Positions 6,050-64,000 of a DNA stretch of 64,000 nt are shown here, piece by piece. A program made the translations under genes and the position numbers. Below the pieces are notes generated by a model, which worked only from the letters and a program-made list of their open reading frames with translations, had not been told where the DNA came from and searched no databases. This DNA is from an uncultured Actinomycetes bacterium (GTDB lineage: Bacteria; Actinomycetota; Thermoleophilia; UBA2241): the NCBI GenBank assembly GCA_963725665.1, contig CAVRZA010000003.1, positions 192,001-256,000 on the forward strand, read 5' to 3'. Within the stretch, counting starts at the first letter, position 1, and every line of letters begins with the position of its first letter.

Positions 6050-6790
6050 GCCGTGGCCTCGCGCTGGCGGCGTTGGTGATCGTCTGCGCGTCGGCGTGGT
6101 CGCCTTCCAGGCGTCGAGGCCGGCGGCGTCGGGAGCGACGCCCACGTGTTCGTGCCGTCGCCTCGCTTCTTCGACATCTCGCCGCAGCTTCCGCAGCCGG
6201 TCGCCGACGCCTACTGGCTCTAGACGATCCAGTACTACGGCGAGCACGTGAACAGCGACCGCGGCTCGACTCGCTGCGGGCCTCCTCGATTTGGTCACGA
6301 CTCTGAGCCCCCACTTCCGCCAGGCCTACTTCATCGGCTCGTTCGCGTTGCTCGACGCCGGCAGGGCCGACCTGGGTTACGAGCTGCTGAAGCGCGGCTA
6401 CGCCGCGAACCCCGGCGACTGGCGCTTCCCCTTCTACCTGGGCTTCTTCGTCTACACGTTCGGCAGGAAGGAGCTGAAGGACCAGGTCGCCGCGCAGTAC
6501 TATCAGCAGGCGGCGGCGCTGCCGGGGCATCTGCCTTCATGCCGCGGCTCGCGGCCGCCCTGCTGACGAAGTCGGGCACGACGCGAGAAGGCGATGCCAT
6601 GTGGGCGAGCGTCTACGGGCAGGGCGACCTCTACTCTCGGCAGAAGGCCGTCGCCGCGCTCGTGGGCTTCTTGCCCAAGGACAAGACGGCGCGCATGAAG
6701 GCGGTGGCCTCCGTGAAGGACCTCATGTCGCCGCTGGACTTATCATCCGAGCTCGTTCACCGACCTGGGAGTCGGATCCTCGAGATCGCG
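6046..6790 (+). CDS. Pilus-associated TPR-like membrane-anchored protein (frameshifts and an in-frame TAG at 6221)
   Basis: ADAYWL*TIQYYGEH; LSPHFRQAYFIG; LLKRGYAANPGDWRFPFYLGF; boundaries approximate. Confidence 0.6.
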
Positions 6791-6806: not shown

Positions 6807-7562
6807 GTGGCGATGGTGGGTGTCTTCGGTCTGCTGATAGGCAGCTTCCTGAACGCCTGCGCCTACCGCATCCCGCGCCACATCAGCATCGCCAAGGGAC
6901 GCTCCTTCTGCCCGCACTGCCACGCGCAGATCCGCGCCTACGACAACGTCCCGGTCGTGAGCTGGATCCTGCTGCGCGGCCGCTGCCGTGACTGCGGTCG
7001 GCCGATCAGCCTGCGCTATCCCCTGGTCGAGGCGCTGACCGGAGGTCTCTTCGCCCTCGTCGCCGCCGTCGACGGTTTCTCCTGGCTCCTGGTGCCGCAT
7101 CTGCTCTTCGTGGCCGCACTGATCCTCGTGGCCGAGATCGACCTCGAGGTGCGGCTCATCCCCGACGTGGTCATCCTGCCGGTGGCCGCCATCGGACTCG
7201 TGCTGATGATCGTGCTCGAGCCGGCCGAGTGGCTGCAATGGGTGGTCGCGGGGGTGGGCGCAGCGCTGTTCCTGTTGACGGCGGCGCTCGTCTACGAGAA
7301 GCTGCGCGGCATGACGGGCATGGGCATGGGCGACGTCAAGATGGCGCTGTGCATGGGGTTCTTCCTCGGCGCCGCGGTCGTCCCGGCGCTCTTCCTCGGG
7401 TTCGTGCTGGGCGCCGTGATCGGCGTGATCCTCATGGTGCGCGTCGGTGGTGACGGCAAGATGGCCATCCCCTTCGGGCCGTTCCTCGCCGCCGGCGCCA
7501 TCATCGCCCTGTTCCTCGGGCAGCCCGCGATCGACCTCTATCTCAACAGCTTCCTGCGCTGA
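6807..7562 (+). CDS. pilD: Prepilin peptidase
   Basis: GSFLNAC-YRIP, RSFCPHC, RGRCRDC, EIDLE and GMGDVK catalytic Asp motifs, IPFGPFL. Confidence 0.95.
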   Translation: MAMVGVFGLLIGSFLNACAYRIPRHISIAKGRSFCPHCHAQIRAYDNVPVVSWILLRGRCRDCGRPISLRYPLVEALTGGLFALVAAVDGFSWLLVPHLLFVAALILVAEIDLEVRLIPDVVILPVAAIGLVLMIVLEPAEWLQWVVAGVGAALFLLTAALVYEKLRGMTGMGMGDVKMALCMGFFLGAAVVPALFLGFVLGAVIGVILMVRVGGDGKMAIPFGPFLAAGAIIALFLGQPAIDLYLNSFLR

Positions 7563-7871
7563 AAGTCGGCACGCCGAGCGCCCGGGGTGCGCTCGTCAAC
7601 CGAGTTCGGCAAGCCGGGCTCGTCAGGCTGAGCCCTTCAGCCCAGACCCCTCAGCTGAGTCTCACGCGCTGAACCGGCCACGAGGCTTCGGCTTCTCGGG
7701 CGAGTGTCACCCGGTCCGCTGGCAAACGTCACCGGCTCGCGCGTCTCCTCCGCTGGCGGCCTCCCGTGTCGACCGCTATTCTGCGGGAGCAACTCTGCCT
7801 CTGGCAGTCCTCTCGCCCCCGACCGGGGCACAGTCTCCACGTCTGGTTCGCTGTTTCTTGGGGAGGTGTCC

Positions 7872-8453
7872 GTGCTCGCTCTGTCCTCGCTGCGCACGCC
7901 CTGGCCGTCCAGGCCGAGCAGTATGCGCTCGCGCGAGGCCAGCGGCAGCGCCGCCGGGATAGCGCGAGCGCGGGGCTTGCTTGGCGAGGCGCGCGCTGTG
8001 CGTGGTTCGTGCAGCCGGGCGGGCTTCACCGCTGTCGAGCTGATGGTCGTCCTCGCCGTGCTCGGCATCTTGGCCGCCGTGACGGTCCCTTCGGCGGCCC
8101 GCGTCCAGGCCGATGCGGCCGCCCGCGCGGCTGCGCAGCGTTTCGCGCTCGTGCTGCGCTCGGCCCAGGCGCGCGCCTGGGCCGACTGCCTGCCGGTCGA
8201 GGTGCGGCTCGACGCCGACGGCTCGTACGAGGTCGTCGAGCGCGCGCCGGCGGGTCCGCTGCTCCTCGAGCAGGGCTCCGCCGGCGCGCGCTCGACGACC
8301 AACTACCCGCTGGGCGGCGTCGAGTTCGGGCCGGCGGGCTGGCCCTGCTCTCTGGTCACGCACCTGCCGAGGGCCGGTTCGTTCGCCTTCCCCGGCGGGG
8401 CCCGGCCGCACTCCGTGACGTTGCAGATGGGTGGGCGCACGAGGTGGCAGTGA
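7872..8453 (+). CDS. Minor pilin (FimT/GspH-like)
   Basis: AG|FTAVELMVVLAVLGILAA; RBS GGGAGG before GTG. Confidence 0.75.
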   Translation: MLALSSLRTPWPSRPSSMRSREASGSAAGIARARGLLGEARAVRGSCSRAGFTAVELMVVLAVLGILAAVTVPSAARVQADAAARAAAQRFALVLRSAQARAWADCLPVEVRLDADGSYEVVERAPAGPLLLEQGSAGARSTTNYPLGGVEFGPAGWPCSLVTHLPRAGSFAFPGGARPHSVTLQMGGRTRWQ

Positions 8454-51148: not shown

Positions 51149-51329
51149 TTACGCAAGCGCGTCGCGCAGAGCACACGGTGCGGGTGGACGTTCGACGGAT
51201 CGCACCTCGACCTCGCTCGTCCGCGTTTCGTCGCCGTGGCGGTCCGCGGTCTGTGTCGAGGCGGTGCCGGTCGGGTACCTTGTGGCCCAGACGAAGCGGC
51301 GTGAGAAGCGATGAGGAGGTGAGGTCTGC

Positions 51330-51542
51330 TTGGCGTTGACCGTGTATACGAAGGTAGGCTGCACAGCGTGCGAGGCGCTAGTGAGAGACTTGAAGGCGCG
51401 AGACGTGCCGTATCGGCTGGTCGATATCGACCGCTCGCCCGGCGGCGCGCAGGAACTCTCTCACCTGACCGGAGGCAGGCCGACAGTGCCCACCGTAGTT
51501 GACGAGGACGGCGAAGTGCTGCTCGGTTTCGGCAACACCTGA
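51330..51542 (+). CDS. Glutaredoxin-like protein (possible C-terminal Sec)
   Basis: RBS GAGGAGGTGA; YTKVGCTAC, TVPTV, ends GFGNT-TGA. Confidence 0.8.
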   Translation: MALTVYTKVGCTACEALVRDLKARDVPYRLVDIDRSPGGAQELSHLTGGRPTVPTVVDEDGEVLLGFGNT

Positions 51543-51678
51543 GGAGGAGACCGTGGCCTGCGTCGGCGGCTCTGGCTGGCCGAACGCAGGCGTCGGCGCG
51601 CGTGACGCGCTGGATCAACTCACCAAGCGGTGCGCCGCGCAGCGCCAGTGCATCGCTTCGCTGCTCAGGCGCGACCCT

Positions 51679-51713
51679 AGGGGTGGGCGGCAAGGGACGA
51701 GCCGCCCACCCTC
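51679..51713. terminator. Hairpin between convergent genes
   Basis: GGGTGGGCGGC...GCCGCCCACCC inverted repeat. Confidence 0.6.
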
Positions 51714-51723
51714 TATGCGTCGG

Positions 51724-52507
51724 TCACGAAGGCTTGCTCGAATAGGTCGCCACGCGCCTCGCGTGTTCTTCTAGGCCGATCGGACAGGCGTCGTGACAGA
51801 TGAGGCACTCGTGGCTCCCACGCGGCGAGTAGTGTCCCGCCCACTTCTGCCAGGCCTTGTTGGGCTCGGCCAGCATCTCCTGCGGGACGATGCACTTCCA
51901 GAAGTCGACCTTCTTGCCGGGCTCCACGCCTTGCGATGGACCGGGGATGATGGCCCCCGTGGGGCAGGCCCTGACGCACAGCTCGCAGTCGCCACAGAGG
52001 TCCCTCGCGAACGGCTCGTCGTAGGGCAGAGCCGCGTCGGTGACCACGCAGCACCAGCGCACGCGCGGGCCAAGCAGTCGGGGTGACGCACAGGGTCTGC
52101 TTGCCGATCCACCCCAGACCGCCCATCGTGGCGGCGGCCTTCGCGTGCACGAAATGGGTGACGGCAGTCTTGTGCCCGGCGTCTCTCACGGCCTCTGCGA
52201 AGCGGTGAGCGCGGGCCTCGGTCAGCTCGTAGTAGAGATTGTAGTACTGCGATCCCGGCACGTCGTCGAAGGGGATGGCACCGTCGGGCAGCACGGACGT
52301 CACGACGGTGTTGAGCATCGTGTCCCAGATGTGCATGCCGAGCACGATGACGCTCTTCGCACCGTCGAGGAACCCGTTTGGCACCTCCAGGCAGCGATGC
52401 GGCGGAAACGGGACCGCAGCAAGCTTCTCGGCGTCGACGACGCCGAAGAACTCGAACCCATGGTCCGCTGCCTCGGCCCGCAATCGTTCCTTCAGGTCAG
52501 GCGACAC
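51724..52507 (-). CDS. QueG/reductive-dehalogenase-like 4Fe-4S dicluster protein (frameshift near 52075)
   Basis: AKSVIVLGM, KAAATMGGLGWIGK, CGDCELCVRACPTGAI, CLICHDACPIG. Confidence 0.82.
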
Positions 52508-52805
52508 GACACGACCTCACTTCCTCTACGCGCAGTGCGCTGGTCTAGAACCTGTCCACATGATGGCGGGCGCGGCGGCTTCGGTGCGGCCGCCTTCACT
52601 CCCTCGACGCGATCGTTGAGCGTCGAAACGTGCCTGCATGGCGGCATTATAGTCCGCGGTGCGCGGCCGTCTACCTCGCTCCAAGATGCGGGCCGTGGAG
52701 CGCTCCGAGTCCAGGGGCCACGCACACCGTCCTCTGGCAGGGCGCAGCCCGACTCGCTAGACTCCCGCTGCCGCGGTAGGGCCCTCTGCCACCGTGAAGG
52801 TCGCA

Positions 52806-53306
52806 ATGAGGCTCTTCGGCAAACCCGATATCGAGCAGATGAGGCGCGATGGCGACATCGCAGGCCTTGTCCACTGGGCTGACTTCCGTAGGGACCAGAG
52901 CCTGAGTCGCGCCGCGGTAGCGGCTTTGCGCGAGAACGTCTACGCGGTCGTGGAGCGTCTGTTCGACACCGCTGTCTGGGCTCACGCGCACAGGGGGCCA
53001 GGCCGCAGGGGTCTGTCACCTTCGGGGGTGCATCGGCTCAACGAGATCACGGTCGCCTTGCGCAAGATCGGTCCGCCCGCCGTCGCTCCTCTCGCCGATT
53101 CGGTCCGCCTGTACGGCGACTACGGGGACCCCGACGAGCACATGCGATTCCTCTACTTCGCCCTGGTCTTTGACGTGTTGCAGAAGATAGGACGTCCGGC
53201 GGCGAACGAGTTGCGTGACCTCGCCGAAGGCGCAGATCCCGATGTCCGCGAGCATGCGCAGGAGGCGTTGAGCAAGCTCGAAGCACGAGGTCAGCTTGAC
53301 GACTGA
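52806..53306 (+). CDS. HEAT-repeat-like hypothetical protein
   Basis: FGKPDIEQM..DIAGL, ALRKIGPPAVAPL, DPDVREHAQEALSKL. Confidence 0.7.
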   Translation: MRLFGKPDIEQMRRDGDIAGLVHWADFRRDQSLSRAAVAALRENVYAVVERLFDTAVWAHAHRGPGRRGLSPSGVHRLNEITVALRKIGPPAVAPLADSVRLYGDYGDPDEHMRFLYFALVFDVLQKIGRPAANELRDLAEGADPDVREHAQEALSKLEARGQLDD

Positions 53307-53519
53307 TGAAGAGGTCGTGGTCGCCGTTCGCGCATCCTGGCCCTCATCGCGGGAGTGGGCGACACTTGCTGCACGGCGGCGGCTGAAGGCCGGCTTGTCC
53401 CCTGCTGTGGCTGCCACGCCGAGCCCCGGCGATCCCTGATCCGGCGTGCCGTAGCCGACGGCACCCGGGCTTGGCAGTGAGGCTCCAGATTGCGCCACAG
53501 CGTCTTCCCTCGCATACCG

Positions 53520-53550
53520 TTGACCGGGGGGTATAGCATTGCAATAGAAT
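53520..53550 (+). promoter_or_regulatory. sigma-70-type promoter candidate upstream of mtmB
   Basis: TTGACC-N19-TAGAAT in an AT-richer patch; spacer is long and includes a G run. Confidence 0.35.
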
Positions 53551-53956
53551 TCACGTACACATTGGAGCCGTCACCGGCCGTTCGTTGGACGATGTGTCAC
53601 GGAGCGATTCGACGGGCGGCGAGGCGACTCCAACTGTTAGTTCTGCGTACGGAACCAAGGTTCGAACGCGACGGTTCCGGTCGGCATGCATTGGCGCTTG
53701 ATGGGGCGAGAACGCGATGGCTGCAAGGTCGCAGACGGATCATTCCACGTTGTCTCGAGGTCGCGTTCCCCCGCCCGGGCGGTCTCGAATCGACCGCCTT
53801 CCAGTACGACCACGGTCGTAGAACCTTTTGGCGCAAAGTGCGACAGGAGAGCGAGAGGCGTCGTTGGTCACCGCTCTCACGCCGAGGAGGTGATGTCATC
53901 CCGAGAAGGCTGACCGGCCGAAGGAAGAGCAGTGAATCCCGAAAGGAGGGAGTCAC

Positions 53957-55366
53957 GTGGCGAGAACTACCAAGGCCCTGCCCGAGCGCATGACGGTGTT
54001 TCATGCCTGGGAGCGCGCGCGGAGAGGTCCCAAGGTCGACGAGAAGACGTGGGATTTCGAGGTCATCCCCAAGACGGCGACTCGTCTGAAGGAGAAGTAC
54101 GGGATCAAGATGGACAAGAAGGTCATGATCCCGACCGATCCCGACATCATGAAGCGGCTCTACGAGGCCGGCCTCGAGATGCTCGTCGAGACCGGCGTGT
54201 ACATCATCGAGACCGGCCGTGTCGTGAAGTACACCAAGGATGAGGTGCTCTTCACCGTTGCTCAAGCGCCGAAGCACGCCATCATCGGCGAGGGGGCACT
54301 GCACTACCGGCCGCTCGTACCGAGGGCGTGGAACAGCACGACGCCGCCGATCATCCAGGGCGGCCCGACCGGCGCGCCCTGCAGCGAGCAGCACTTCCTC
54401 GGCATCCACGAGTCGTACGCCAAGGAAGGCATCGTCGACTGCATCGTCGACGGCGTGCTCGAGAAGATCAACGGCTACAACCCGGCCCCGGAGAGCCCCG
54501 CCGAGGTGTGGGCCTCCAAGCAGGAGATGTTCCTGGTCCGCCAGGCCCAGGCCAAGGCCTGTCGCTTAGGGATGGGGTTGTAGGGCGCCGAGACGCCTCT
54601 CGGGGCGGCGGCCATCGTTGCAGCCGATTTTCCCGGCGGCATGCGGGCCACTGACAACCACGAGGTGTCCCAGCTTAATGAGCTGAAGATGGAAGCCGGA
54701 GGCTGGCAATTCGTCGCTCATTACGCACTAGCTGGCGACATCATCATGGATGAGCAGATGCCCATTTTCGGCGGCTTTGCCGGTGGTCTCGAGGAGACGA
54801 CCATCGTCAACGTTGCCACCCACCTCAACGCCTTCGTCATGAACCAGGCGACCTGGCACCTCGACGGACCCGTCCACATGCGCTGGGGCAACACCACCGC
54901 CAGGGAGGTTCTGGCAGTGGCCGGCCACGGCCAGCGGGCGATCGAGGAGCATTGGCCGGATCTCATGACGGGCAACCAGTACTACCCCACCGCCGGCCCG
55001 GGCACCGTGATGTGCCTGCTAGAGACGGCGGCGCAGGCCATCACCGACACCTGCAGCGGGCGCGAAGTGGTGTCGGGCGTCGCGTCGGCCAAGGGCGTGA
55101 AGCTCGACAAGACCACCGGCCTGGAGGCGCGCTTCATGGGCGAGGTCTGCCACGCTGTGGCCGGCATGCCCCTGGACCAGATCAACGAGATCCTCGATGC
55201 TCTGGTGGCCAAGTACGAGGGTGACTACCTGACGGCGGATGAAGGCAAGACCTACGCCGAGTGCTACGACACCGACAAGGTCGTCCCCAACGATGAGTAC
55301 CTGGCAGTGTACGACGAGGCCGTTGCGATCATGAAGGATCTCGGCGTCAGCTACAAACTGTGGTAA
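53957..55366 (+). CDS. mtmB: Monomethylamine:corrinoid methyltransferase with in-frame TAG (pyrrolysine) at codon 209; 469 aa on readthrough
   Basis: ORFs 53957-54583 and 54641-55366 share one frame, separated only by TAG 54581-54583; context RLGMGL-O-GAETPL matches MtmB GRPGMG-x-O-GPETS; also QGGPTG, SQLNELK, EQMPIFGGFAGG, WHLDGPVH, GPGTVMCLLE; RBS AAGGAGGG. Confidence 0.95.
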
Positions 55367-55479
55367 AGGAGCATGTGACTTCAGGCACGGCGAGGATGCA
55401 GGTGTTCTGGTCTGGAACAAGCTCCGCCTCGCCGCGCGGACATCGCCCCGGAGGCCGAGATCGAGGAGGCAAGTGAGCA

Positions 55480-56124
55480 ATGGCAAACGAGGAGTTGATC
55501 AAAGAAGCGCGTGCGGCGCTTCTTACGACCGACAAAGCCAAGGCTGAGGACGTCGCCAAACGAGCCATAGCCGCAGGCATGGATCCGGGCGATATCATGC
55601 AGAATGGCTTCGTCGCCGGCATCCGTGAGCTCGGCGAGAAGTTCGACAAGGGCGAGGTCTTCCTGCCCGAGTTGATGCTTGCGGCCGAGGCCATGGAAGC
55701 CGCCATGGAGATCTGCAACGCGGCCCTGCCCGAGGGCAAGAGCGAGACACGCGGTGTCGTCGTCATCGGCACCGTGGAGGGCGACGTGCACGACATCGGC
55801 AAGGCTGTCGTGATCGCCTATCTGCGCGCCAACGGGTACGACGTCCATGACGTCGGGAAGGACGTGCCGCCGCAGGACTTCATCGACAAGGCGGTTGAGG
55901 TCAACGCCGACGTCATCGGCGCGAGCGCTCTGCTGACGGCCACGCTGGCCGTGCAGGGCGAGATCGAGGAGTACCTCAAGGAGGCCGGCCTACGCGGCAA
56001 GTTCAAGACGATCGTGGGCGGTGCCACCTGCACGCAGGGCTGGGCCGACAAGATCGGAGCCGACGCGTACGCGAAGGATGCCAGCGACGCGCTGCAGAAG
56101 ATCGGCGAACTCGTCGGACGCTGA
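55480..56124 (+). CDS. mtmC: Cognate methylamine corrinoid protein
   Basis: B12-binding GTVEGDVHDIGK, GASALLT, IVGGA, IGADAY; directly after mtmB. Confidence 0.9.
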   Translation: MANEELIKEARAALLTTDKAKAEDVAKRAIAAGMDPGDIMQNGFVAGIRELGEKFDKGEVFLPELMLAAEAMEAAMEICNAALPEGKSETRGVVVIGTVEGDVHDIGKAVVIAYLRANGYDVHDVGKDVPPQDFIDKAVEVNADVIGASALLTATLAVQGEIEEYLKEAGLRGKFKTIVGGATCTQGWADKIGADAYAKDASDALQKIGELVGR

Positions 56125-56160
56125 AGCGGCGTCGAGCTGCAGTAGGATATCAGTGAACAA

Positions 56161-56202
56161 GGGGGCGCCCCGGCCGACGAGAGTCGGCTGGGGCGCCCCC
56201 CC
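56161..56202 (+). terminator. Long hairpin after mtmC
   Basis: GGGGGCGCCCCGGCCGAC-GAGA-GTCGGCTGGGGCGCCCCC. Confidence 0.7.
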
Positions 56203-56256
56203 GTATGACAGTCTTCGGACGGATTGCCGGCAAGGTTCGCGCTGAGGAGGGCAGCG

Positions 56257-57483
56257 GTGGCACAGGTCAATGCAGGAGACACAGCCTTCGTCCTCATCAG
56301 CGCCGCCCTCGTGGCGCTGATGACACCGGCTATCGCCTTCTTCTACGGCGGGCTGGTGAGGCGCAAGAACTTCTTGTCGATCATGATGCAGAGCTTCATC
56401 TCGATGGGCATCGTGACGGCCATCTGGGTCGCCGTCGGCTACTCGCTGGTCTTCTCCGGCGATGTCTGGGGCATCATCGGCAACCTCGATTGGGCCGGCC
56501 TACACGGCGTCGGCCAAGCTCCGGGTCCGTGGGCGCCGACCATCCCTGCGCTGGCGCACTTCGACTTCCAGGAGATGATCGCCATCTTCACGCCGGCTCT
56601 GATCACCGGCGCCTTCGCCGATCGGGTGAACTTCAAGAGCTACCTCTGGTTTCTCGTGCTCTGGAGCCTGCTGGCCTACATCCCGCTGGCGCACTGGGTG
56701 CGTGGCGGTGGTTTCCTCGACCAGTGGGGCGCAGAGGACTTCGCTGGCGGCCTGGTGGTCCACGTGAGCGCCGGGTTCGCTGCACTGGCGTCGGTGTACG
56801 TCGTGGGCAAGCGCAGGTTCTTGCCCGGCGAGCGTACGTTGCCGCACAACATCTCTTTCGTGGCGATCGGCACGGCCCTGCTCTGGCTCGGCTGGTTCGG
56901 CTTCAACGGAGGGAGTGCACTGGCGGCCAACGGAATCGCCGCGCAGGCATTCGTGAACACCGACATCGCGGGCTCGATCGCCATGTGCACCTGGCTTGCG
57001 CTCACGTGGCTCCGCAACGGCAAGCCGAGCCTCGTCGGCGCCCTCACGGGAGCGATCAGCGGACTGGTGTGCATCACCCCTGCGGCCGGGTTCGTCCCGA
57101 CCTGGTCGGCATTCGTCTTCGGCGCAGCCGCGGGCGTCGTCTGCTACTACGCGATAGTCGTCAAGCAGAGGATGGAGTGGGACGACGCGCTCGACGTCTG
57201 GGCGGTCCACGGTGTCGGCGGGATACTGGGCACCCTGCTGCTCGGTGTCTTCGGCTTCGCTGCGGTCAATGCCGCCGGCTCCGATGGGCTGTTGGCAGGG
57301 GACGCGGCCTTCTTCGGGGTGCAGCTCGTCTCCGCTGTGATCGCCGCCGGCTACTCCTTCGCGGTGACGTACCTGATCCTCAGGCTGCTCAACCACTTCC
57401 AGCCCGTGCGCGTGCCCGACGCCGTGGAGCAGAGGGGCCTCGACGCCGAGATGCACGGCGAGGAGGCCTACCACCTGACTTGA
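56257..57483 (+). CDS. amtB: Ammonium transporter (Amt family)
   Basis: GDTAFVLISAALVALMTP, DFAGGLVVH, WFGFNGGS, ITPAAG, DDALDVWAVHGVGG; GTG start after GAGGAGGG. Confidence 0.95.
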   Translation: MAQVNAGDTAFVLISAALVALMTPAIAFFYGGLVRRKNFLSIMMQSFISMGIVTAIWVAVGYSLVFSGDVWGIIGNLDWAGLHGVGQAPGPWAPTIPALAHFDFQEMIAIFTPALITGAFADRVNFKSYLWFLVLWSLLAYIPLAHWVRGGGFLDQWGAEDFAGGLVVHVSAGFAALASVYVVGKRRFLPGERTLPHNISFVAIGTALLWLGWFGFNGGSALAANGIAAQAFVNTDIAGSIAMCTWLALTWLRNGKPSLVGALTGAISGLVCITPAAGFVPTWSAFVFGAAAGVVCYYAIVVKQRMEWDDALDVWAVHGVGGILGTLLLGVFGFAAVNAAGSDGLLAGDAAFFGVQLVSAVIAAGYSFAVTYLILRLLNHFQPVRVPDAVEQRGLDAEMHGEEAYHLT

Positions 57484-57543
57484 GCTGCCCGAAGCCGTGT
57501 TCCCGCGGTGGAAAGCCGCCCGCGACTCCGCTAGCCTGAGCTC

Positions 57544-58338
57544 GTGGAGAGCGAGCTTCCTACCCTGGGAGTCGAGCTTGTCGGCGATGGACTCGGCCCG
57601 TTCGACGACATCGAGTTCATTGGCAGCGGCAGGTTTGCGGAGACGTACCGCGTTGTGCGTGACGACGACGAGTACGTGCTCAAGGTCTGCCACTTCATCC
57701 CGCGCATACCGCAGGAGCTCTGGGAACATGAGCTCGAGGCGCTGCGGCGCGTGAGACACCCGAACGTCATGGCATTCCGCGCCGCAGGGCACCTGCGAGC
57801 CCAGGGCAAGACGTACCCCTTCATGGAGTGCGAGTACATCGACGGCCGCGACGTGAGAGGGATGATCGCCGCCGGGCTGCGACCGGAGGATCCGTCGGCA
57901 CTGCGGGAGTTCTTCGCAGGCCTCCTGCGCGGCGTGGCGGAGCTCCACGACCTGGGCATCCTGCATCGCGACATCAGGCCGGCCAACGTGGCCCTGCGGG
58001 GCGGCCACTGGCAGAAACCCGTGCTGCTCGACTTCGGCCTGGCTCAGACCTACGTCGTCTCGGCGGCGCAGCAGCGCCTCTCGCTGGGCGAGCGGCGGCG
58101 GGATCTTGTTGCCCTCGCCGAGGTCGTGTACGAGGTCGGGGCGGGACGACCTCCCGTCCACGAACCACGGGCCGCCCGGACCCTCGCCACGCGGGTGCGG
58201 CGGCGTGCTCTGGTCGACCCACGCAGGCTCTCGCCGCTGTTCGCGGACGACGTCGCCGAGGTCGTCGTCCGTCTGTTGTCTCGCGGGCAGTCGCGCTCGG
58301 GGGCCGATGAGGCGTTGCGAGAGCTGGAGGAGTCCTAG
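57544..58338 (+). CDS. Ser/Thr protein kinase-like protein with reduced C-lobe
   Basis: IGSGRFAETY, VLK, HPNV, HRDIRPANV, LDFGLA; no APE motif. Confidence 0.75.
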   Translation: MESELPTLGVELVGDGLGPFDDIEFIGSGRFAETYRVVRDDDEYVLKVCHFIPRIPQELWEHELEALRRVRHPNVMAFRAAGHLRAQGKTYPFMECEYIDGRDVRGMIAAGLRPEDPSALREFFAGLLRGVAELHDLGILHRDIRPANVALRGGHWQKPVLLDFGLAQTYVVSAAQQRLSLGERRRDLVALAEVVYEVGAGRPPVHEPRAARTLATRVRRRALVDPRRLSPLFADDVAEVVVRLLSRGQSRSGADEALRELEES

Positions 58339-58431
58339 GGACGATCACGCAGCTCCCGGACCTGGCAACGAATCGCCGTCGCGCGCTCAGAACGCGGCAC
58401 TCGGACGGTGCGTGACAGACAGCACAAGCCG

Positions 58432-58460
58432 TTGCAATGCCCCGGGCCATTGTGTACAGT
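58432..58460 (+). promoter_or_regulatory. sigma-70-type promoter candidate for the permease cluster
   Basis: TTGCAA-N17-TACAGT with TG extension. Confidence 0.55.
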
Positions 58461-58711
58461 GCGCGCATCCTCGCACGATACGCCCATCGGGGCCCCAAAG
58501 CCCGCCGTCGAAGGGGGATGGTGTCGTACGGGTCTCTCAGGCTCGATGAGGGGAGGTCGCCAGACGAGAGCTTCCGCACCCAGTGAACGCTGAGGGCTCG
58601 GCAAAAGCTGCCGGCCCCTCACCCGCCTCGCTCTCCCGAAACCGCGCGTCTGTCGCGCCGCCGGAGGAGGTCGGGCGGGCCGACCATTTCGGGCAAGTGA
58701 AAGGGGGACAC

Positions 58712-59125
58712 TTGAGTCGTACCGAAGCCGACCTCGCCGTCGAGCAAGCTGTCGCTGCCGAGGCGAAGAGAGGCACCCACGATCCACGCATCGAGAAGAC
58801 GTACCGACGGGACGTGATCACGATCTACACGTTCGTGATCGCCCTGTTGTTCACACTCTGGGCAGTGTTCTTCTTCGTCGTGAATCCCAACGTCCAGGAC
58901 AACACCCTGCGCTGGCTCATGATCGGCCTGGGCATATTCGCCTCCGTCTTCAACGCCACGGGGATGATCCAGAACACCCGGCGCCTCAAGCAGGAGGCGG
59001 TACGCTTCTACTCCCAGGACCTGTTCTGGCAGGACCAGAAGAAGCTGCAGAAGGAGTACGCGAAACAAGAGCACGAGATGTACCTGAGGCAGAAGAACGT
59101 GGACAAGGGGGCGACCGATGCCTGA
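58712..59125 (+). CDS. Small two-TM membrane protein (permease cluster gene 1)
   Basis: TTG after AAGGGGG; two hydrophobic helices; coding-like codon usage. Confidence 0.75.
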   Translation: MSRTEADLAVEQAVAAEAKRGTHDPRIEKTYRRDVITIYTFVIALLFTLWAVFFFVVNPNVQDNTLRWLMIGLGIFASVFNATGMIQNTRRLKQEAVRFYSQDLFWQDQKKLQKEYAKQEHEMYLRQKNVDKGATDA

Positions 59126-59282
59126 ACACGACGACGAGTGGATCCCGTATCAGGGATACCAGGAGCCGAAGCAGCACGTGTTCTGGCAGGTGTTCGATGT
59201 GGTCTTCATCCTGGCCCTCTGCTACGTCTGCCTGCTCGTGCCGATCCTGCTGGCCGGCAAAGTCCTGGTCGGGGGGGACTGA
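59118..59282 (+). CDS. 54-aa single-TM protein (permease cluster gene 2; below the ORF track cutoff)
   Basis: RBS AAGGGGG; MPEHDDEWIPYQGYQEPKQHVFWQVFDVVFILALCYVCLLVPILLAGKVLVGGD*; overlaps previous stop. Confidence 0.7.
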   Translation: MPEHDDEWIPYQGYQEPKQHVFWQVFDVVFILALCYVCLLVPILLAGKVLVGGD

Positions 59283-59309
59283 TCATGGCTCCTGCGATCA
59301 TGAGAAGGA

Positions 59310-59594
59310 GTGGGTCAGTCCGCCGTGGATGTCGGCAGATTGTGGTTCTCTGTGCTTGCGACCCTGGGCAGCCTGATGATGCTGGCCATCGTCGTAGCCC
59401 CGGCTCTGGCCGCGGGGAAGGTCCCGACGTGGGAGCTCTCGAAGGAGAAGGCCCCCGAGCTGGACTACACGCTCAGTCTCGGCACGGCCGTCCTTACCTT
59501 CGGGCTCCTGATCGCCTTTTTCGTCATGCTCTTCGTGCTGTCGGAGAGGGAGTTCAAGGGCGTGATCAACGAGCGCTTCGGACCGAAGAAGTGA
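59310..59594 (+). CDS. Small membrane protein (permease cluster gene 3)
   Basis: Two hydrophobic segments, ends SEREFKGVINERFGPKK; start uncertain. Confidence 0.7.
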   Translation: MGQSAVDVGRLWFSVLATLGSLMMLAIVVAPALAAGKVPTWELSKEKAPELDYTLSLGTAVLTFGLLIAFFVMLFVLSEREFKGVINERFGPKK

Positions 59595-59613
59595 GAAGGG
59601 TGGTGTCATCGCT

Positions 59614-59883
59614 GTGAGTATCGAAGAGGTCATGAACTACGTGGCATGGGCGGTGAGCATCGCCATTATCGCGTGGATGGTGATTGACGCCCTGCGCGTC
59701 GAGGTGACCTACGACCGAGACCTGCTCGTCAGCTCGGTAGAAGGCGAGATCGAGAAGGAGATCCTCTCGTCTGACGAGGAAGCCACGCTCAAGAGGCATG
59801 CGTCCGACTGGGCGGCGGAATACACCGAAGTCGAGGCGGAAGCGCGAAAGGCCGAGCAAGCGCCGCCCGGAGGAGGGTCCTGA
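59614..59883 (+). CDS. Small single-TM protein (permease cluster gene 4)
   Basis: NYVAWAVSIAIIAWMVIDALRV...LLVSSVEG; stop overlaps permease ATG. Confidence 0.75.
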   Translation: MSIEEVMNYVAWAVSIAIIAWMVIDALRVEVTYDRDLLVSSVEGEIEKEILSSDEEATLKRHASDWAAEYTEVEAEARKAEQAPPGGGS

Positions 59884-61276
59884 TGGCAGCTGAAGCGCCT
59901 GCGGTCACCGCCGCAAGACCGAAGCGCCTGAGCCTGCTGCGCGTCCTCGGCCCCTGCACATCTGGGGTCTCGGCGTGGGCATCGTGCTCGTGGGCGAGTT
60001 CATGGGTTGGAACTTCACGGTGGCCAAGGGCGGAGTGTTCGGCGCGCTCGTCGCCTGCTGGTTCAGCGGCATCCTCTACTCCTGCGTCGCCATGATCGAC
60101 TCCGAGGTGAGCTCGACGGTGGCCTCGGCCGGTGGCCAGTACGCGCAGGCGAAGCACATCCTCGGCCCCTCGGCCGCCTTCAACCTGGCTCTGTTCATCA
60201 TCTTCGAGTACGTGATGCTCGAGGCCGGCGACGCCATCGTGATCGGCGCCATCATGGAGAAGCTCAGCGCGAACTTCAGCGCGACGGCCTGGGTCATCCT
60301 GACCATCGCCATCCTGTCGTTCCTCAACTACCGCGGCGTGACGTTGGCGCTGACCGTCAACTACATCATCACGGCCATCGCCTTCATCACGATCCTCCTC
60401 CTCCTCTTCGGGAACTGGGGGAACTTCTTCACCCAATACCTATTCACGGCCGATATCGGCGGCAGGAATCCCGAGATGCCGTACGGCTGGCTCGGCATCC
60501 TCGCCGCGCTGCAGTTCGGCATCTGGTATTACCTGGGCATCGAAGGCACCTGCCAGACGGCTGAGGAGTGCCGCTCCGCTCCGCGCGCGCTGCCGATCGG
60601 CACGATGTCTGGGCTCGTCACGCTGCTGATCGCCGCCACCATCACCTGGTACGTCGCTACCGGCCTGGTCGACTGGGTGACGCTCGGATCATCGGCGTAC
60701 CCGCTCTACGACGCGGCGCTGAACACGAGTAAGGACTGGCTCATCGTGGCGCTGTTCATCGGCACTGTGTTGAGCTGTCTGGCGTCGGCTAACGGCTGCA
60801 TCAACGACGCCTCGCGGGCCTGGTTCGCCATGGGACGCGACCAGTTCGTGCCGCGCTTCTTCGGCGGCGTGCACCCGCGCTACAAGACGCCGTACCGCTC
60901 GATCCTGTTTCTGATCCCCATCGCCATGGCCTTCGGGTACACGGGGTTGCTCGACCAGGTGATCACCTTCTCGATCATCTCGGGCTGTTTGATATACGCC
61001 GTCATGCCCCTCAACATCATCCGTTTCCGCAGGCTCTATCCGATGGGCTCCATCAGGCGGGGCTACGTCTACCCCTTCCATCCCTGGCCGGCGTTCGTGC
61101 TCGCTCTCTTCGTAGCGCTCACGTTCATCGCCGTCTACTTCGGCTACTGGCGCAACCTGGTCGGGGCCATGGCCTTCTATATCCTCGCCTCGATCTGGTT
61201 CACCTTCCACCGCTACAGGATGGTGGATCGCTCCAAGCTCTACACCATGCCCTGGCCGCGGCCTAAGGGATACTGA
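59883..61276 (+). CDS. APC-superfamily amine permease, putative methylamine permease (frameshift near 59955)
   Basis: LLRVLGP/HIWGLGVGIVLVGEFMGWNF, SAGGQY, WYYLGIEG, ASANGCINDASR, HPRYKTPYR; about 12 TMs. Confidence 0.88.
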
Positions 61277-61302
61277 GGATCCGGCCGGCAAGGGAGGGCA
61301 GG

Positions 61303-61758
61303 ATGTTCGAGACGATACTAGTAGCAACAGATGGCTCGCACTCGGCGGGGAAGGCCGTCGACTTCGCGGTGGAGCTCGCCAAGAGCCATGGTTCCAAGCT
61401 CGTGATCTGCACCGTCACACGAGAGCGGCTGGCGACGATCGACAGGGACCCCGGCGAGCCCAATCCGCCCGACGTCGACCCGAGAGCATCGCTGAGTCGC
61501 GGTCAGGCCGACCAATCGGCGGAGGTTCTGCGCCGAGGCGAGCAGGCGGCCAAGGCAGCGGGCCTGGGGAACTACGATCTGCGCGAGATCTACGGCACGA
61601 ACACAGGCGCCACCATCGTGAAGGAAGCCGAAGCGATGGGAGCCGACCACATCGTCGTCGGCTCTGTCGGGGAGACCGGCCTCGCCAGGCTGCTCATGGG
61701 TTCCGTGGCGGCGAGCGTGGTGCATCACGCCCACTGTCCGGTGACGGTGGTGCGGTAA
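61303..61758 (+). CDS. Universal stress protein
   Basis: ILVATDGS, IVVGSVG, MGSVAASVVHHAHCPVTVVR. Confidence 0.93.
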   Translation: MFETILVATDGSHSAGKAVDFAVELAKSHGSKLVICTVTRERLATIDRDPGEPNPPDVDPRASLSRGQADQSAEVLRRGEQAAKAAGLGNYDLREIYGTNTGATIVKEAEAMGADHIVVGSVGETGLARLLMGSVAASVVHHAHCPVTVVR

Positions 61759-61800
61759 GTGACTGGAGGGCCACAGCCGCAACACGGCGCGCGGTAGGTC

Positions 61801-62466
61801 ATGGAGTTTGACCTGCTCTGGAAGGGCGCCGTGGTCGCGGCTGTGGCCCTCTTCTTCGTCTGGCGCCTCCTGAGGGTCCAACAAAGCGATCAGGCGACGA
61901 AGGCGCACATGCTCGACGAGCTCCTGCCGGAGGTCGAGCGGGCCGCGTGGACGTGGAGCCCCTGGCATTATCCCCGCCTCGACGGGATGCTTGACGGGTA
62001 TCCCGCTCGCTTCGACCTTCTGTCCGACACCCTTGTGACGCGCTCACTGCCCACGCTCTGGCTACAGCTGCGCTGGGCACTGCCTCACGAGGGCTGCTTC
62101 TGCGTGACCATCGACCCGACCGGCGCCGAGTTCTTCTCCAACGATGCCGACTGCGGTCGCCTTCTGCCGACGCCGAGCTCCTGGGGGGTGAGGGCGGAGA
62201 TCCATGCCGACGGCAGCGGGGGCGCGCTCCTGCGCCGCCTGTCCGCCCTCGATCTGAGCTCCTACCCCTCGGTCAAGCAGCTTTCCGTGGTAGAGGGTGA
62301 GCTCAGGCTGACCGTGCGTTGCGCCCGCGGGGAGCTGCAGATCTACCGGGTGATGCGCGCCGCGAAGTTCCCTCCCGACTGCGTTTCCCCAAGCATCGTG
62401 GCGGAGACGTTGTCTTTGGCGCGTGCGGCCCGAGACGTCCTGACGGCAGAACGAGAGGCGGGATGA
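61801..62466 (+). CDS. Membrane-anchored hypothetical protein
   Basis: N-terminal TM; YPRLDG, DTLVTRSLPTLWL; in operon with next gene. Confidence 0.7.
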   Translation: MEFDLLWKGAVVAAVALFFVWRLLRVQQSDQATKAHMLDELLPEVERAAWTWSPWHYPRLDGMLDGYPARFDLLSDTLVTRSLPTLWLQLRWALPHEGCFCVTIDPTGAEFFSNDADCGRLLPTPSSWGVRAEIHADGSGGALLRRLSALDLSSYPSVKQLSVVEGELRLTVRCARGELQIYRVMRAAKFPPDCVSPSIVAETLSLARAARDVLTAEREAG

Positions 62467-63092
62467 GCGCCGGCGCATCACGACCGAAGAAGAAGTCGCA
62501 ACGACCGGCCAGGCCGGCAGGCGAGATCCGCAAGCCTTACCCCGTGTGGCTCGTCACCACCGCGGCCTTCCTGCTGCCGGGCAGCGGCCAGATGCTGAAC
62601 GGTTTTCCCGTGCGAGGGATCATCATGCAGTTCTTCATGATCGTCCTCGGGTTTGTCACGTACAAGATCAGCAGCCCCGACATCTCGTTCATCGGCCGGT
62701 TCGCCGGCGGCATCTTCGTGTACGTCTTCTCGGTCATCGACGCCAACACCGTGGCGAAGCGCGCCATGGCTGCGTGGGAACGGATGGGTGAGGGCGGCGG
62801 CGGAGCCGGGAGCGGGCCCACGTCGTCCGGTCGGCGCCCCAATAAGGATCGAGAGCCGCAGAAAGGCGCCAAACCGTCGCGGCGCCGCGTCCAGGGGGAG
62901 GGCGAGACGCGGCAACGACCGCCGGTGCGGACCAAGCCAACGAAGCCGACGAACCCGACCAAGCCAACGAAGCCGAAGAACTCGACGAACCAGACGAAGC
63001 CAACGAGGCCTCCCGGCGAGCCCCCCCTCAAGGGGGGCGGAGGCGTCCGCGTGGCACTCGCTGCGCGCGGGGAGTCAACAGGAGTGAGCTGA
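62463..63092 (+). CDS. Membrane protein with basic repetitive tail
   Basis: LLPGSGQMLNGFPVRG, SFIGRFAGGIFVYVFSVIDA; ATG overlaps previous stop. Confidence 0.75.
   Translation: MSAGASRPKKKSQRPARPAGEIRKPYPVWLVTTAAFLLPGSGQMLNGFPVRGIIMQFFMIVLGFVTYKISSPDISFIGRFAGGIFVYVFSVIDANTVAKRAMAAWERMGEGGGGAGSGPTSSGRRPNKDREPQKGAKPSRRRVQGEGETRQRPPVRTKPTKPTNPTKPTKPKNSTNQTKPTRPPGEPPLKGGGGVRVALAARGESTGVS
62931..63011 (+). repeat. Degenerate 9-nt coding tandem repeat (T-K/N-P units)
   Basis: ACCAAGCCA ACGAAGCCG ACGAACCCG ACCAAGCCA ACGAAGCCG... Confidence 0.8.
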
Positions 63093-63182
63093 GCGCCGGC
63101 CGACGCGTCTGCGGATCCGGCCGGCCTGGGTATACTCTTTTAGTACGGCAACGAGCTTGGGACTTCGGAAGTGAATGCAGAG

Positions 63183-64000
63183 GTGTCACCTCCGCACGAC
63201 GCAGGGGACACCTCCGGTAACCCAGATCCCAGGCGGATCGCCCCATTCCTGTCTCACCACCCGCTTCTCGAGGGCCTTAGCCGTGACGATCGCGAGAGAA
63301 TGGCCGAGATGGTCGTCGTGCGTTGCGTGCCGGCGGGCGAGTCGGTCCTCGTCGAGGGCGGGCCGCCAGGTACGTATCTCTTCGTCGTCGTGGAAGGGTC
63401 GATGGAAGTCCTGGCCGGGGGCCTTGTCGTCGACGTGCTGACGAGTGGGGAGGTGTTCGGCGCCCCGACCCTGGTCACGGGTCTTGCCCCAGGGTTCTCG
63501 GTTCGCGCGCGCGAAGGCTCGACGTTGTATCTCGTCCCTCGAGAGGCGGCGATCGAGCTGCTCCTTCGCCCTGAGGGGGTCGCATTCGTGGTGGCGTCCT
63601 TGCGAGACCGGCTCGTTCACACCTCGCGGACGTTCAGATCGGTCGCCGACCCGCGGAGCGTTCCCGTTTCTTCTCTCATCCGTCGCGCGCCTGTCATCTG
63701 CCAGGCCGACACGCCCATTCGCGACGTGGCCATGATCATGAGCCAGGAGGTCGTAGCCGCTGTCCTCGTGGAGACCCGCCAGGGTCTCGGCATCGTCACC
63801 GACGCCGATCTGCGCGACAGAGTACTGGCCGCTGGATTGTCGGCGCATGCTCCGGTCGGCTCGATCACGACCACTCCGGTCCGCACCATCAGCGCCGAGC
63901 GCCTGGCGCCCGAGGCGAGCATCGAGATGATGCAAGCCGGCATCAACCATCTGGTCGTCATCGATGCCGCTGGTGGCGTGCTCGGCATCGTTTCGGCCGG
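63183..64000 (+). CDS. cNMP-binding plus CBS-pair protein (likely DUF294 nucleotidyltransferase-like), truncated by window end
   Basis: Frame open from GTG 63183 to the end: FLSHHPLL, YLFVVVEGSMEV, GEVFG, LGIVTDADLRDRV, INHLVV. Confidence 0.8.
   Translation, partial: MSPPHDAGDTSGNPDPRRIAPFLSHHPLLEGLSRDDRERMAEMVVVRCVPAGESVLVEGGPPGTYLFVVVEGSMEVLAGGLVVDVLTSGEVFGAPTLVTGLAPGFSVRAREGSTLYLVPREAAIELLLRPEGVAFVVASLRDRLVHTSRTFRSVADPRSVPVSSLIRRAPVICQADTPIRDVAMIMSQEVVAAVLVETRQGLGIVTDADLRDRVLAAGLSAHAPVGSITTTPVRTISAERLAPEASIEMMQAGINHLVVIDAAGGVLGIVSA

Follow-up and report, generated by a model that had tools for sequence, protein, structure and literature searches.

A methylamine island with pyrrolysine-type methyltransferases and a candidate multi-protein permease in a Thermoleophilia genome

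Introduction

In a 64,000-nucleotide stretch of DNA (the window) from contig CAVRZA010000003.1 of an uncultured Thermoleophilia bacterium, the genes for a monomethylamine methyltransferase (mtmB) and its corrinoid protein (mtmC) stand in one row with an ammonium-channel gene (amt), a kinase-like gene, and a permease gene set within a cassette of five small genes. Judged from gene content and comparison with other genomes, this row belongs to an island that probably lets an anaerobic, non-methanogenic bacterium use mono- and dimethylamine, with uptake by a multi-protein transporter of the MtmP type and with the amt-kinase pair as an add-on. The methyltransferase part adds a new member to a kind already known, and the transporter is a so far undescribed variant, made up of several genes, of the APC permease systems.

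In soils, wetlands, and oceans, methylamines rank among the major currencies of carbon and nitrogen, and methane is formed directly from them. To our knowledge, the route by which cells take up monomethylamine is still unsettled. The full-text literature, which leaves subscription papers outside its coverage, yielded no description of the cassette or of a partnered APC-type methylamine permease, and a search of the literature on Thermoleophilia and pyrrolysine found nothing related.

Results

A pyrrolysine-type monomethylamine methyltransferase

The mtmB gene has a single in-frame stop, a TAG codon (Table 1) that the preliminary description of this DNA, made from its letters alone, left unmentioned. 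Pfam MtmB (PF05369) covers profile positions 1-195 before the TAG (224.9 bits) and 197-449 after it (386.1 bits), and the protein scores 630.7 bits against the family profile when it is read across the codon. The TAG falls at profile position 196 and pairs with K202 of Methanosarcina barkeri MtmB1 (chains 1tv2_A/1l2q_A; 508.8 bits), the pyrrolysine residue of that enzyme. The mtmC product scores 228.9 bits against TIGR02370 (cut-off 215.3) and contains the motif D-V-H-D-I-G.

The machinery for reading such a codon is present in the host genome, which amounts to 3.73 Mb in 12 contigs and is 97.5% complete. Specifically, there is a pylT gene (tRNA-Pyl, anticodon CTA) with pylBCD just upstream, and the NCBIfam scores exceed their cut-offs for PylB (448.5 bits against 348.2), PylC (338.4 against 248.3), and PylD (211 against 150). 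PylS is split into PylSc (314.6 bits against 178) and PylSn (119.9 against 51), and pylBCD-pylT, pylSc, and pylSn occupy three separate places on contig C6. Taken together, mtmB reads as a genuine pyrrolysine enzyme gene, and methyl transfer to MtmC is predicted from family membership and adjacency.

For an actinobacterium, the host has an unusually large set of corrinoid methyltransferase and pyrrolysine genes. MttB-family matches number 31, six of them with a single in-frame TAG. Besides a TAG-containing mtbB just beyond the window there are three more mtbB-like stretches, and the whole set is spread over contigs C1, C2, C4, C6, C9, and C11; MtmB homologues of the non-pyrrolysine type are found as two intact genes and one fragmented gene (three pieces on C4). 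A tRNA-SeC gene (G000:C11:550041-550138) accompanies the pyrrolysine genes, so that the host appears to use selenocysteine as well as pyrrolysine.

A permease cassette that keeps company with monomethylamine genes

To place the locus among its relatives, we compared it across 201 genomes of the class, the host included, and counted a permease as orthologous at an identity of at least 79%. A TAG-type mtmB is present in 11 of these genomes and a permease orthologue in 6, with both in 5; in the sixth permease genome (G013), the contig with the cassette breaks off within a corrinoid gene. Five relatives keep the order m180-m94-m89-permease-m221-m257 beside mtmB/mtmC and/or mtbB/mtbC. A search with an m180 alignment returned 14 loci, five of which are those same relatives, and the order m180-m94-m89-permease-m221 is found in all 14; together with the wider sample below, this regularity is far from what random placement would produce. 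The nearest come from Thermoleophilia, Gaiellales, and Actinomycetota metagenome-assembled genomes (MAGs). Among the 12 actinobacterial loci, 11 have mtmB or mtbB beside the cassette, and the 12th is cut off by the contig end within a corrinoid gene. The other two are from Gemmatimonadales MAGs, in which the cassette follows N-methylglutamate genes encoding a Glu_synthase-type MgsC, a SoxA/GCV_T-type subunit, a DAO-type subunit, and a GS-type GmaS.

A wider sample, the best 80 of at least 575 relatives found with a mixed permease alignment, spans four phyla. Hidden Markov models (HMMs) placed m180, m94, and m89 upstream of the permease, in that order, in 80/80 loci, the weakest m180 match being that of L231 (E 0.079). 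Downstream, m221 is present in 78 loci and m257 in 75, and in 30 a usp separates the permease from m221. Among the carriers are Methyloversatilis universalis FAM5, Methylophaga, Methylotenera, Methylobacillus, Paraburkholderia, Paracoccus, Hyphomicrobium, Methyloceanibacter, Roseovarius nubinhibens, and a Desulfosporosinus. Genes for monomethylamine catabolism lie within 7 kb of the cassette in 65 of the 80 loci: N-methylglutamate genes in 57, Mtm/corrinoid genes in 7 (six Thermoleophilia and the Desulfosporosinus, whose locus also has PylD_N, radical-SAM, and ATP-grasp genes that are PylB/PylC-like), and methylamine dehydrogenase genes (mauE, mauA, amicyanin) in one, from Hyphomicrobium. The preliminary description had named the joint occurrence of the permease cluster with methylamine genes, and its synteny in related MAGs, as points to check; both bear it out, in the retained gene order with adjoining mtm/mtb genes and in the counts of 11/12 and 65/80.

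These three pathways have only their substrate in common, and our main argument is that the cassette would therefore handle monomethylamine. The assignment rests on strong, purely comparative evidence. It is unlikely, in our estimate, that the cassette instead carries or senses another small amine, such as ethanolamine, dimethylamine, or ammonium, or that it is a methylamine transceptor, with bulk uptake left to Amt or to diffusion of the free base. Such an alternative would suit the 15 of 80 loci where no probed methylamine gene lies within 7 kb, the placement of amt beside the cassette in both the host and G013, and the clustering of signaling genes (usp, the kinase-like gene, and the DUF294-type gene) around it. 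For Pseudomonas sp. C5pp, the accessible part of one report describes amt as the methylamine transporter of a gmas-mgsABC-amt operon (PMC8292978). The alternative also draws on the best curated match of the permease, which is the ethanolamine permease TIGR00908 (profile 4-429 of 442). However, the cut-off of that model (381.75 bits) is widely missed, at 210.4 bits for the intact orthologue in L142 and 184.5 for the fragment in the window, and none of the annotated flanks contains eut genes. In addition, the dimethylamine genes of the island have a different permease of their own, from the NF053774 family, and the three pathways beside the cassette, chemically unrelated to one another, have monomethylamine as their sole common feature.

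In the Hyphomicrobium carrier (Hyphomicrobium sp. D-2, L219 4091-9125), the cassette stands behind mauE, a mauD-like gene, mauA, and amicyanin, and two tandem permeases (5047-6582 and 7001-8383) lie between m89 and m221.

In two class genomes with a TAG-type mtmB, G019 and G032, the locus is well assembled and contains other transporters, and the flanks examined showed neither amt nor the kinase nor the cassette. In G019, which is of the same family as the host, genes for an ornithine carbamoyltransferase (OTCase) and a DDAH/ADI-like enzyme come directly before mtmB(TAG)-mtmC (L098 10298-14495), and a gene for an amino-acid kinase resembling carbamate kinase lies 8 kb upstream. These genes may form a route from methylated arginine to citrulline and monomethylamine that feeds MtmB. 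G032, of the same class, has a pyrrolysine island (L100) with the order mtmB(TAG)-mtmC-mtbB(TAG)-usp-MtaA-like-pylS-pylB-(pylC)-pylD-SSF transporter-mttB(TAG)-mtbB(TAG), in which an SSF transporter takes the place of the APC cassette and usp is again present.

The permease reading frame

The permease begins at an ATG (59883) that is preceded by GGAGG and shares bases with the m89 stop (TGATG). Its reading is divided between two frames, one open from that ATG and the other from a GTG at 59975 to 61276, because the sequence is one base short at a run of C (59951-59954); 14/14 relatives read the permease in a single frame. Contigs assembled from four public runs over this region amount to short fragments from relatives (92-99% alike) and leave 59940-59965 unbridged. 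No RNA run is listed among those that carry the region; one library, labeled metatranscriptomic yet flagged as probably DNA, has pieces over mtmB, mtmC, and the permease and is given no weight here. The open reading frame (ORF) at 59883-60095 is thus the permease N-terminus, split off by the one-base change. This bears on the gene list of the preliminary description: all of its genes are present and co-oriented on the plus strand, but its "four small membrane genes" are three genes and this N-terminus.

Taken at face value, the frame change would make the transporter part a decaying remnant, with uptake by amt alone. Decay would be in keeping with intact permeases in all 14 relatives and with other broken genes, namely a second DUF294-type copy (L111 1743-3055; L111 is the DNA that follows the window) and the MtmB homologue in three pieces on C4. 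Yet the change falls at a homopolymer run, the remaining 433 codons of the permease are open and 78-82% identical to orthologues, and all five partner genes are intact. We consider decay quite unlikely.

Kinship with methanogen MtmP and a putative relative of m89

In 31 of 78 Methanosarcinaceae loci, mtmB is followed by the gene for MtmP, a putative permease; the permease of the window shares 44-45% identity with it over residues 1-432, along with an N-terminal motif. The placement of this gene right after mtmB agrees with the statement in the preliminary description that methanogens encode an APC permease beside their mtm genes. The permease is 60% identical to the copy next to gmaS-mgsABC in M. 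universalis FAM5. In a tree of 111 permease sequences, the 32 archaeal copies make up one side of a branch (SH-aLRT 100), and the Thermoleophilia permeases fall within the bacterial side, next to the Gemmatimonadales copies (SH-aLRT 99). By this position, the island joins pyrrolysine-type methyltransferases, approximately 52% identical to those of methanogens, with a transporter of bacterial type.

One of the partners may extend to the archaea. In 78 methanogen loci, the m89 HMM matched 29 small ORFs, all on the same strand and 75-105 nucleotides before the start of the MtmP match, a spacing that puts their ends at the mtmP start codon. Such an ORF precedes 29 of 32 Methanosarcinaceae MtmP copies, and 29/29 HMM matches are at that place. 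The ORFs encode 30-45 residues with one helix, in which the (near-)invariant N, W, and D-A positions of m89 are conserved. When an HMM was built in the reverse direction, the sole ORF that it matched in six frames of the host genome was m89 (E 0.075), and in bacterial loci it matched only m89 ORFs (3 matches in one search and 25/80 wider loci in another). Within a core of 24 codons, the third position varies in 24/24, the first in 14, and the second in 10, and codon differences are synonymous in 3126 cases versus non-synonymous in 1943. Third-position variation and the synonymous excess are the pattern of a translated gene. In the same 78 loci, nothing at E <= 1 matched the HMMs for m180, m94, and m221. 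These data suggest that the methanogen micro-ORF is a relative of m89; a shortened form before mtmP would make m89 the oldest of the partners.

The cassette proteins

The first three partners are small membrane proteins. m180 is a hairpin of two transmembrane (TM) segments with conserved basic cytoplasmic ends; its conserved core begins near residue 55, and its real start may therefore be later than 58583. m94 starts with a signal-like N-terminus, after which come a variable linker, one TM segment, and a conserved SEKEFK..FGPK tail, and m89 has a single TM segment and an invariant acidic tail (ETTYD..LLVSS.EGEIE). In m257, whose start is the ATG at 62463 and not 62319, a conserved membrane core of approximately 90 amino acids with a PG.GQ..NG motif is followed by a low-complexity tail. 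No Pfam or NCBIfam family was found for any of the five: at E <= 0.1, Pfam gave sub-threshold noise only for 27 small proteins, and NCBIfam gave nothing for 14 small proteins or ORFs.

The predicted structure of m221 (pLDDT 85.6, pTM 0.81) consists of an N-terminal helix and an alpha/beta domain. In structural alignments (VIA-align), the model matched 7TUT chain 4 (Z 12.7), TtfA (6T84_A; Z 11.9, rmsd 3.2, 148/178 residues), and 9i78_4, a chain of the SND3 translocon (Z 10.8); the rows that follow reach at most 7.4 and are type III chaperone/YbjN-like folds. A Foldseek search of the PDB returned nothing for m221 at E <= 0.001. Identity to TtfA is 7%, with no sequence-family match at E <= 0.1, while the fold aligns at Z 11.9. 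On the model, m221 is predicted to have a TtfA/CCDC47-like fold. TtfA (6T84) is an accessory factor of MmpL3, and 7TUT chain 4 is CCDC47 of the multipass translocon.

Stop and start codons overlap in the window (TGATG, ATGA) and in relatives, which fits proteins that are made together, and this translational coupling suggests that the cassette proteins are physically associated. One might suppose instead that the five proteins have a separate membrane function, for example in envelope stress or in pH/ammonia handling, and merely travel with the permease gene. The usp within the block and the resemblance of m221 to general membrane-protein helpers (TtfA, CCDC47) would agree with that. It is very unlikely, given the fixed order, tight spacing, and overlapping codons across 80/80 loci in four phyla. 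Furthermore, the m89 relative stays before mtmP in methanogens that lost or never had the other four, and in the host genome each small-protein HMM matches the cassette copy only. A second, more distant m221-like gene (34% identity) lies upstream of m180 in G013 (L141 6681-7274).

The amt gene and the kinase-like gene

The amt product matches PF00909 (372 bits) and TIGR00836 (418 bits against a cut-off of 343), and a paralogue on contig C1 is 77.6% identical in nucleotides. No P-II gene (glnK) lies beside amt; the sole P-II match in the genome is on contig C4. The kinase-like protein is small and soluble, with HRD and DFG motifs and no TM segment. Among the 200 other class genomes, an orthologue occurs in one (G013), next to amt and the cassette, so the amt-kinase pair is present in 2/201 genomes and is both times beside the cassette. 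This pair is a rare, lineage-specific add-on. Amt proteins also carry methylammonium, and the island Amt is predicted to be an ammonium channel that possibly conducts methylammonium too.

The predicted methyl-group route

Beyond the window, the island goes on with a TAG-containing mtbB and mtbC, a second permease, a second usp, and a gene for a methyl-tetrahydrofolate:corrinoid methyltransferase (Table 1). The last lies approximately 8.2-9.1 kb past the window end and 3.5 kb from mtbB(TAG)-mtbC, and both it and the second usp are on the opposite strand. Elsewhere in the host genome is an acs cluster with carbon monoxide dehydrogenase (CODH), acetyl-CoA synthase (ACS), two CdhD-type subunits, RACo, and MeTr. 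The genome encodes two activators of the RamA/RACo type, one in the acs cluster and the other near a non-pyrrolysine MtmB homologue. Methylenetetrahydrofolate reductase (MTHFR, MetF) and formyltetrahydrofolate synthetase (FTHFS, Fhs) are also present, and FolD adjoins FTHFS. In terms of gene presence, the Wood-Ljungdahl set of CODH/ACS, corrinoid iron-sulfur protein (CoFeSP), MeTr, MetF, FolD, and Fhs is found in the genome. No MtbA-type methylcobamide:coenzyme M methyltransferase scores above cut-off in the genome, the closest URO-D-family protein reaching 85.6 bits against 244. Because the tetrahydrofolate and acetyl-CoA genes are present and no MtbA exceeds its cut-off, the methyl group most likely goes to tetrahydrofolate.

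The preliminary description had predicted that acceptor, had noted that the second methyltransferase and a RamA-type activator were absent from the window, and had called for a genome search. The search recovered the methyltransferase, RamA/RACo, acs, fhs, folD, and metF, with the first just beyond the window end in the island and the two activators elsewhere in the genome, in agreement with transfer to tetrahydrofolate.

The island methyltransferase has a copy with a 100% identical protein on contig C6 (L114 8969-9769), the DNA being 99.3% identical over 828 nucleotides. The copies on C3, the contig of the window, and on C6 reflect either a recent duplication or an assembly repeat. The permease of the NF053774 family scores as an equivalog of this Methylocella "TMAO permease" model and shares approximately 31% identity with the permease that follows mtbB in methanogens. 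With this relative and with its match to a trimethylamine N-oxide (TMAO) permease model, the family may carry di- or trimethylamine too.

An insertion between trmD and rplS

trmD ends at 51148 in the window, and rplS lies 22 kb away (G000:C3:265192-265521), right after the island methyltransferase. Normally rplS comes right after trmD, and in relatives the two genes are within 400 nucleotides of each other in 19 of 23 loci. Since the pair is split by 22 kb here, we regard G000:C3:243149-265191 as a 22-kb island that was, by this comparison, acquired; the window covers its left two-thirds. G+C is 65.5% in the island and 68.4% in the genome. The left part of the island, directly after trmD, is 51149-53956.

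Gene layout

Codon-position GC and homology support one co-oriented row on the plus strand, mtmB-mtmC-amt-kinase-like-m180-m94-m89-permease-usp-m221-m257 (Table 1). G+C in the window is 64-77%, mostly 65-73%, and for that reason many shadow ORFs appear. Those at 56205-57539 (+), 56500-58161 (-), and 59138-59617 (+) were rejected as non-coding on codon-position GC and lack of homology. A tRNA scan found no tRNA gene in the window. Terminator-type consensus sites in the region number 9, against 5.1 expected. A second cNMP/CBS/DUF294-type gene, after the cassette, is fragmented into a CBS piece (L111 1743-2282) and a DUF294_C piece (L111 2495-3055).

Table 1. Features of the island, in window positions unless a position in L111, the DNA after the window, is given
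Feature	Position	Strand	Basis or remark
Glutaredoxin-like gene	51330-51542	+	Pfam match
4Fe-4S protein	51724-52062	-	Pfam match
Unknown ORF	52794-53306	+	
mtmB, in-frame TAG at 54581-54583	53957-55366	+	Pfam MtmB
mtmC, corrinoid protein	55480-56124	+	B12-binding, B12-binding_2, TIGR02370
amt	56224-57483	+	PF00909, TIGR00836
Pkinase-like gene, 264 codons	57544-58338	+	Pkinase, 65 bits
m180, cassette protein 1	58583-59125	+	Alignments, TM scan
m94, cassette protein 2	59310-59594	+	Alignment, TM scan
m89, cassette protein 3	59614-59883	+	Alignment, TM scan
MtmP-type APC permease (EAT-related)	59883-61276	+	Frame changes at C-run 59951-59954
usp	61303-61758	+	PF00582, 115 bits
m221, cassette protein 4	61801-62466	+	N-terminal TM, structure model
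m257, cassette protein 5	62463-63092	+	Start overlaps m221 stop (ATGA)
Terminator-like hairpin with T-run after m257	63115-63131	+	Consensus match only
cNMP-binding/CBS/DUF294 nucleotidyltransferase gene	63171-64000, continues L111 2-979	+	Runs off window
mtbB (TAG)-mtbC	L111, after second DUF294-type gene		
Permease, 558 residues, after mtbB-mtbC	L111 5825-7498		NF053774 "TMAO permease", 747.8 bits against cut-off 690
Second usp	L111, between NF053774 permease and methyltransferase		
Methyl-tetrahydrofolate:corrinoid methyltransferase	L111 8228-9139	-	NF005719 (MeTr/MtgA/MtqA-like), 294.2 bits against cut-off 259

Discussion

Our results point to a working scheme for the island. Methylammonium would enter through a multi-protein secondary transporter, which on gene context would consist of the APC permease with m180, m94, m89, m221, and m257. 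Within it, m221 may be a membrane-anchored accessory or assembly factor of the TtfA/CCDC47 kind, and the universal stress protein encoded by usp probably tunes transporter activity. The UAG of MtmB would be read as pyrrolysine by means of the host pylT, pylS, and pylBCD. The enzyme would then demethylate monomethylamine, charging the Co(I) corrinoid of MtmC with the methyl group and releasing ammonium, and the island methyltransferase would pass the methyl group to tetrahydrofolate. From there, methyl-tetrahydrofolate could enter the Wood-Ljungdahl enzymes (MeTr/CoFeSP/ACS) or be oxidized via MetF-FolD-Fhs, and corrinoid that becomes oxidized would be re-reduced by the RamA/RACo-type activases. 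The amt-kinase pair could provide a second, channel-type route for methylammonium or a path for recapture or release of the ammonium made by MtmB. An import-and-demethylation system for an anaerobic non-methanogen, as the preliminary description proposed, gains support from the methyl route of the genome and from the co-occurrence of the cassette with methylamine genes.

Several points weigh against this interpretation. The permease frame is broken in this assembly, and the neighboring Amt channel could do the uptake by itself. Six of the 11 class genomes with a TAG-type mtmB have no permease orthologue, so the cassette is not required for pyrrolysine-type methylamine use, and 15 of the 80 wider loci stand apart from the probed methylamine genes. 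Another small amine is possible as the substrate, since the best curated match is an ethanolamine permease below its cut-off. For m89, the single E-values in methanogens are weak (0.002-0.22), and they concern a transmembrane stretch. Finally, genes alone do not tell methyl oxidation from acetyl-CoA synthesis. Nevertheless, we regard methylamine use with cassette-mediated uptake as the probable function of the island.

A broader proposal is more tentative, namely that the APC permease is obligately complexed with micro-proteins, that the m89 helix is ancient, and that the complex serves as a general high-affinity system for methylammonium uptake in aerobic and anaerobic users. The cassette, widespread and so far unstudied, may supply the importer for methylamine that has long been missing for bacteria and methanogens alike. 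The locus links the putative archaeal MtmP, the "co-clustered conserved proteins" named in the accessible part of a report on strain FAM5, and a pyrrolysine-using soil actinobacterium, which would compete with methanogens for methylamine. The cassette is also a naturally occurring example of an APC transporter accompanied by conserved micro-proteins and is a testable candidate in tractable carriers (Methyloversatilis, Paracoccus, Methanosarcina). The putative relative of m89 before mtmP and the predicted TtfA/CCDC47-like fold of m221 are new here.

Among known systems, the mtmCB(P) unit of methanogens is close to the one described here. Its MtmB (MtmB1; 1NTH/1L2Q) is 50-53% identical to the MtmB of the window and has UAG at the same residue. 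The adjacent corrinoid protein, an MtmP-type permease in the unit, and a small single-TM gene before the permease are likewise shared. The order is B-C in the window versus C-B in methanogens, and the acceptor here would be tetrahydrofolate (by a Pterin_bind methyltransferase) instead of coenzyme M via MtbA. In addition, the permease of the window belongs to a bacterial clade and has four further partners without an HMM match in the 78 methanogen loci. A micro-protein in a methylamine operon has been reported from Methanosarcina mazei: sORF_05, a translated membrane micro-protein, is encoded in the dimethylamine operon along with MM_1691, the permease for trimethylamine, and the authors speculate that it is a permease subunit (PMC11456600). 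MM_1691 is a permease of the TMA/DMA (tri- and dimethylamine) type, like the second permease of the island and not of the MtmP type; the m89 HMM matched only ORFs before mtmP. We regard sORF_05 as a parallel case. For the NF053774 "TMAO permease" family of that second permease, we note that TmoP has been named as a TMAO permease (PMC4543880).

The island also resembles non-methanogenic pyrrolysine users. Pyrrolysine-dependent methylamine use is known from Firmicutes such as Acetohalobium and Desulfitobacterium, and the host has in common with such users the pyrrolysine machinery, TAG-containing methyltransferases, and methyl-tetrahydrofolate and Wood-Ljungdahl genes in one genome. Actinobacteriota MAGs from the thawing Stordalen Mire express pyrrolysine-type mttB and mtbB (PMC10805028), so that such use has already been reported for this phylum; in the accessible part of that report, mtmB and an island of this kind do not figure. 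Compared with the MAGs as described there, mtmB is the focus here, the pyrrolysine genes are scattered, and the methylamine genes belong to an insertion between trmD and rplS that can be dated.

Eat (TIGR00908) resembles the permease over its full length, and it transports a small primary amine cation, as is proposed for the permease; we know of no need of Eat for partner proteins. TtfA and CCDC47 share the build predicted for m221, with an N-terminal anchor, an alpha/beta domain of the T3SS-chaperone/YbjN type, and a C-terminal helix, whereas sequence identity is 7-9% and the partner transporter comes from another superfamily. The N-methylglutamate pathway of FAM5 (gmaS, mgsABC, mgdABCD) is aerobic and glutamate-mediated and works without corrinoid or pyrrolysine, unlike the system in the window. 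Yet in FAM5 the six-gene cassette follows directly after mgsC (L182), as methylamine genes and cassette stand together in the window. According to the accessible part of the report on that strain, growth on methylamine induces the N-methylglutamate genes and homologues of amino-acid permeases, and also the "co-clustered conserved proteins" of the N-methylglutamate cluster, unnamed there, by 6-10-fold (PMC5023235).

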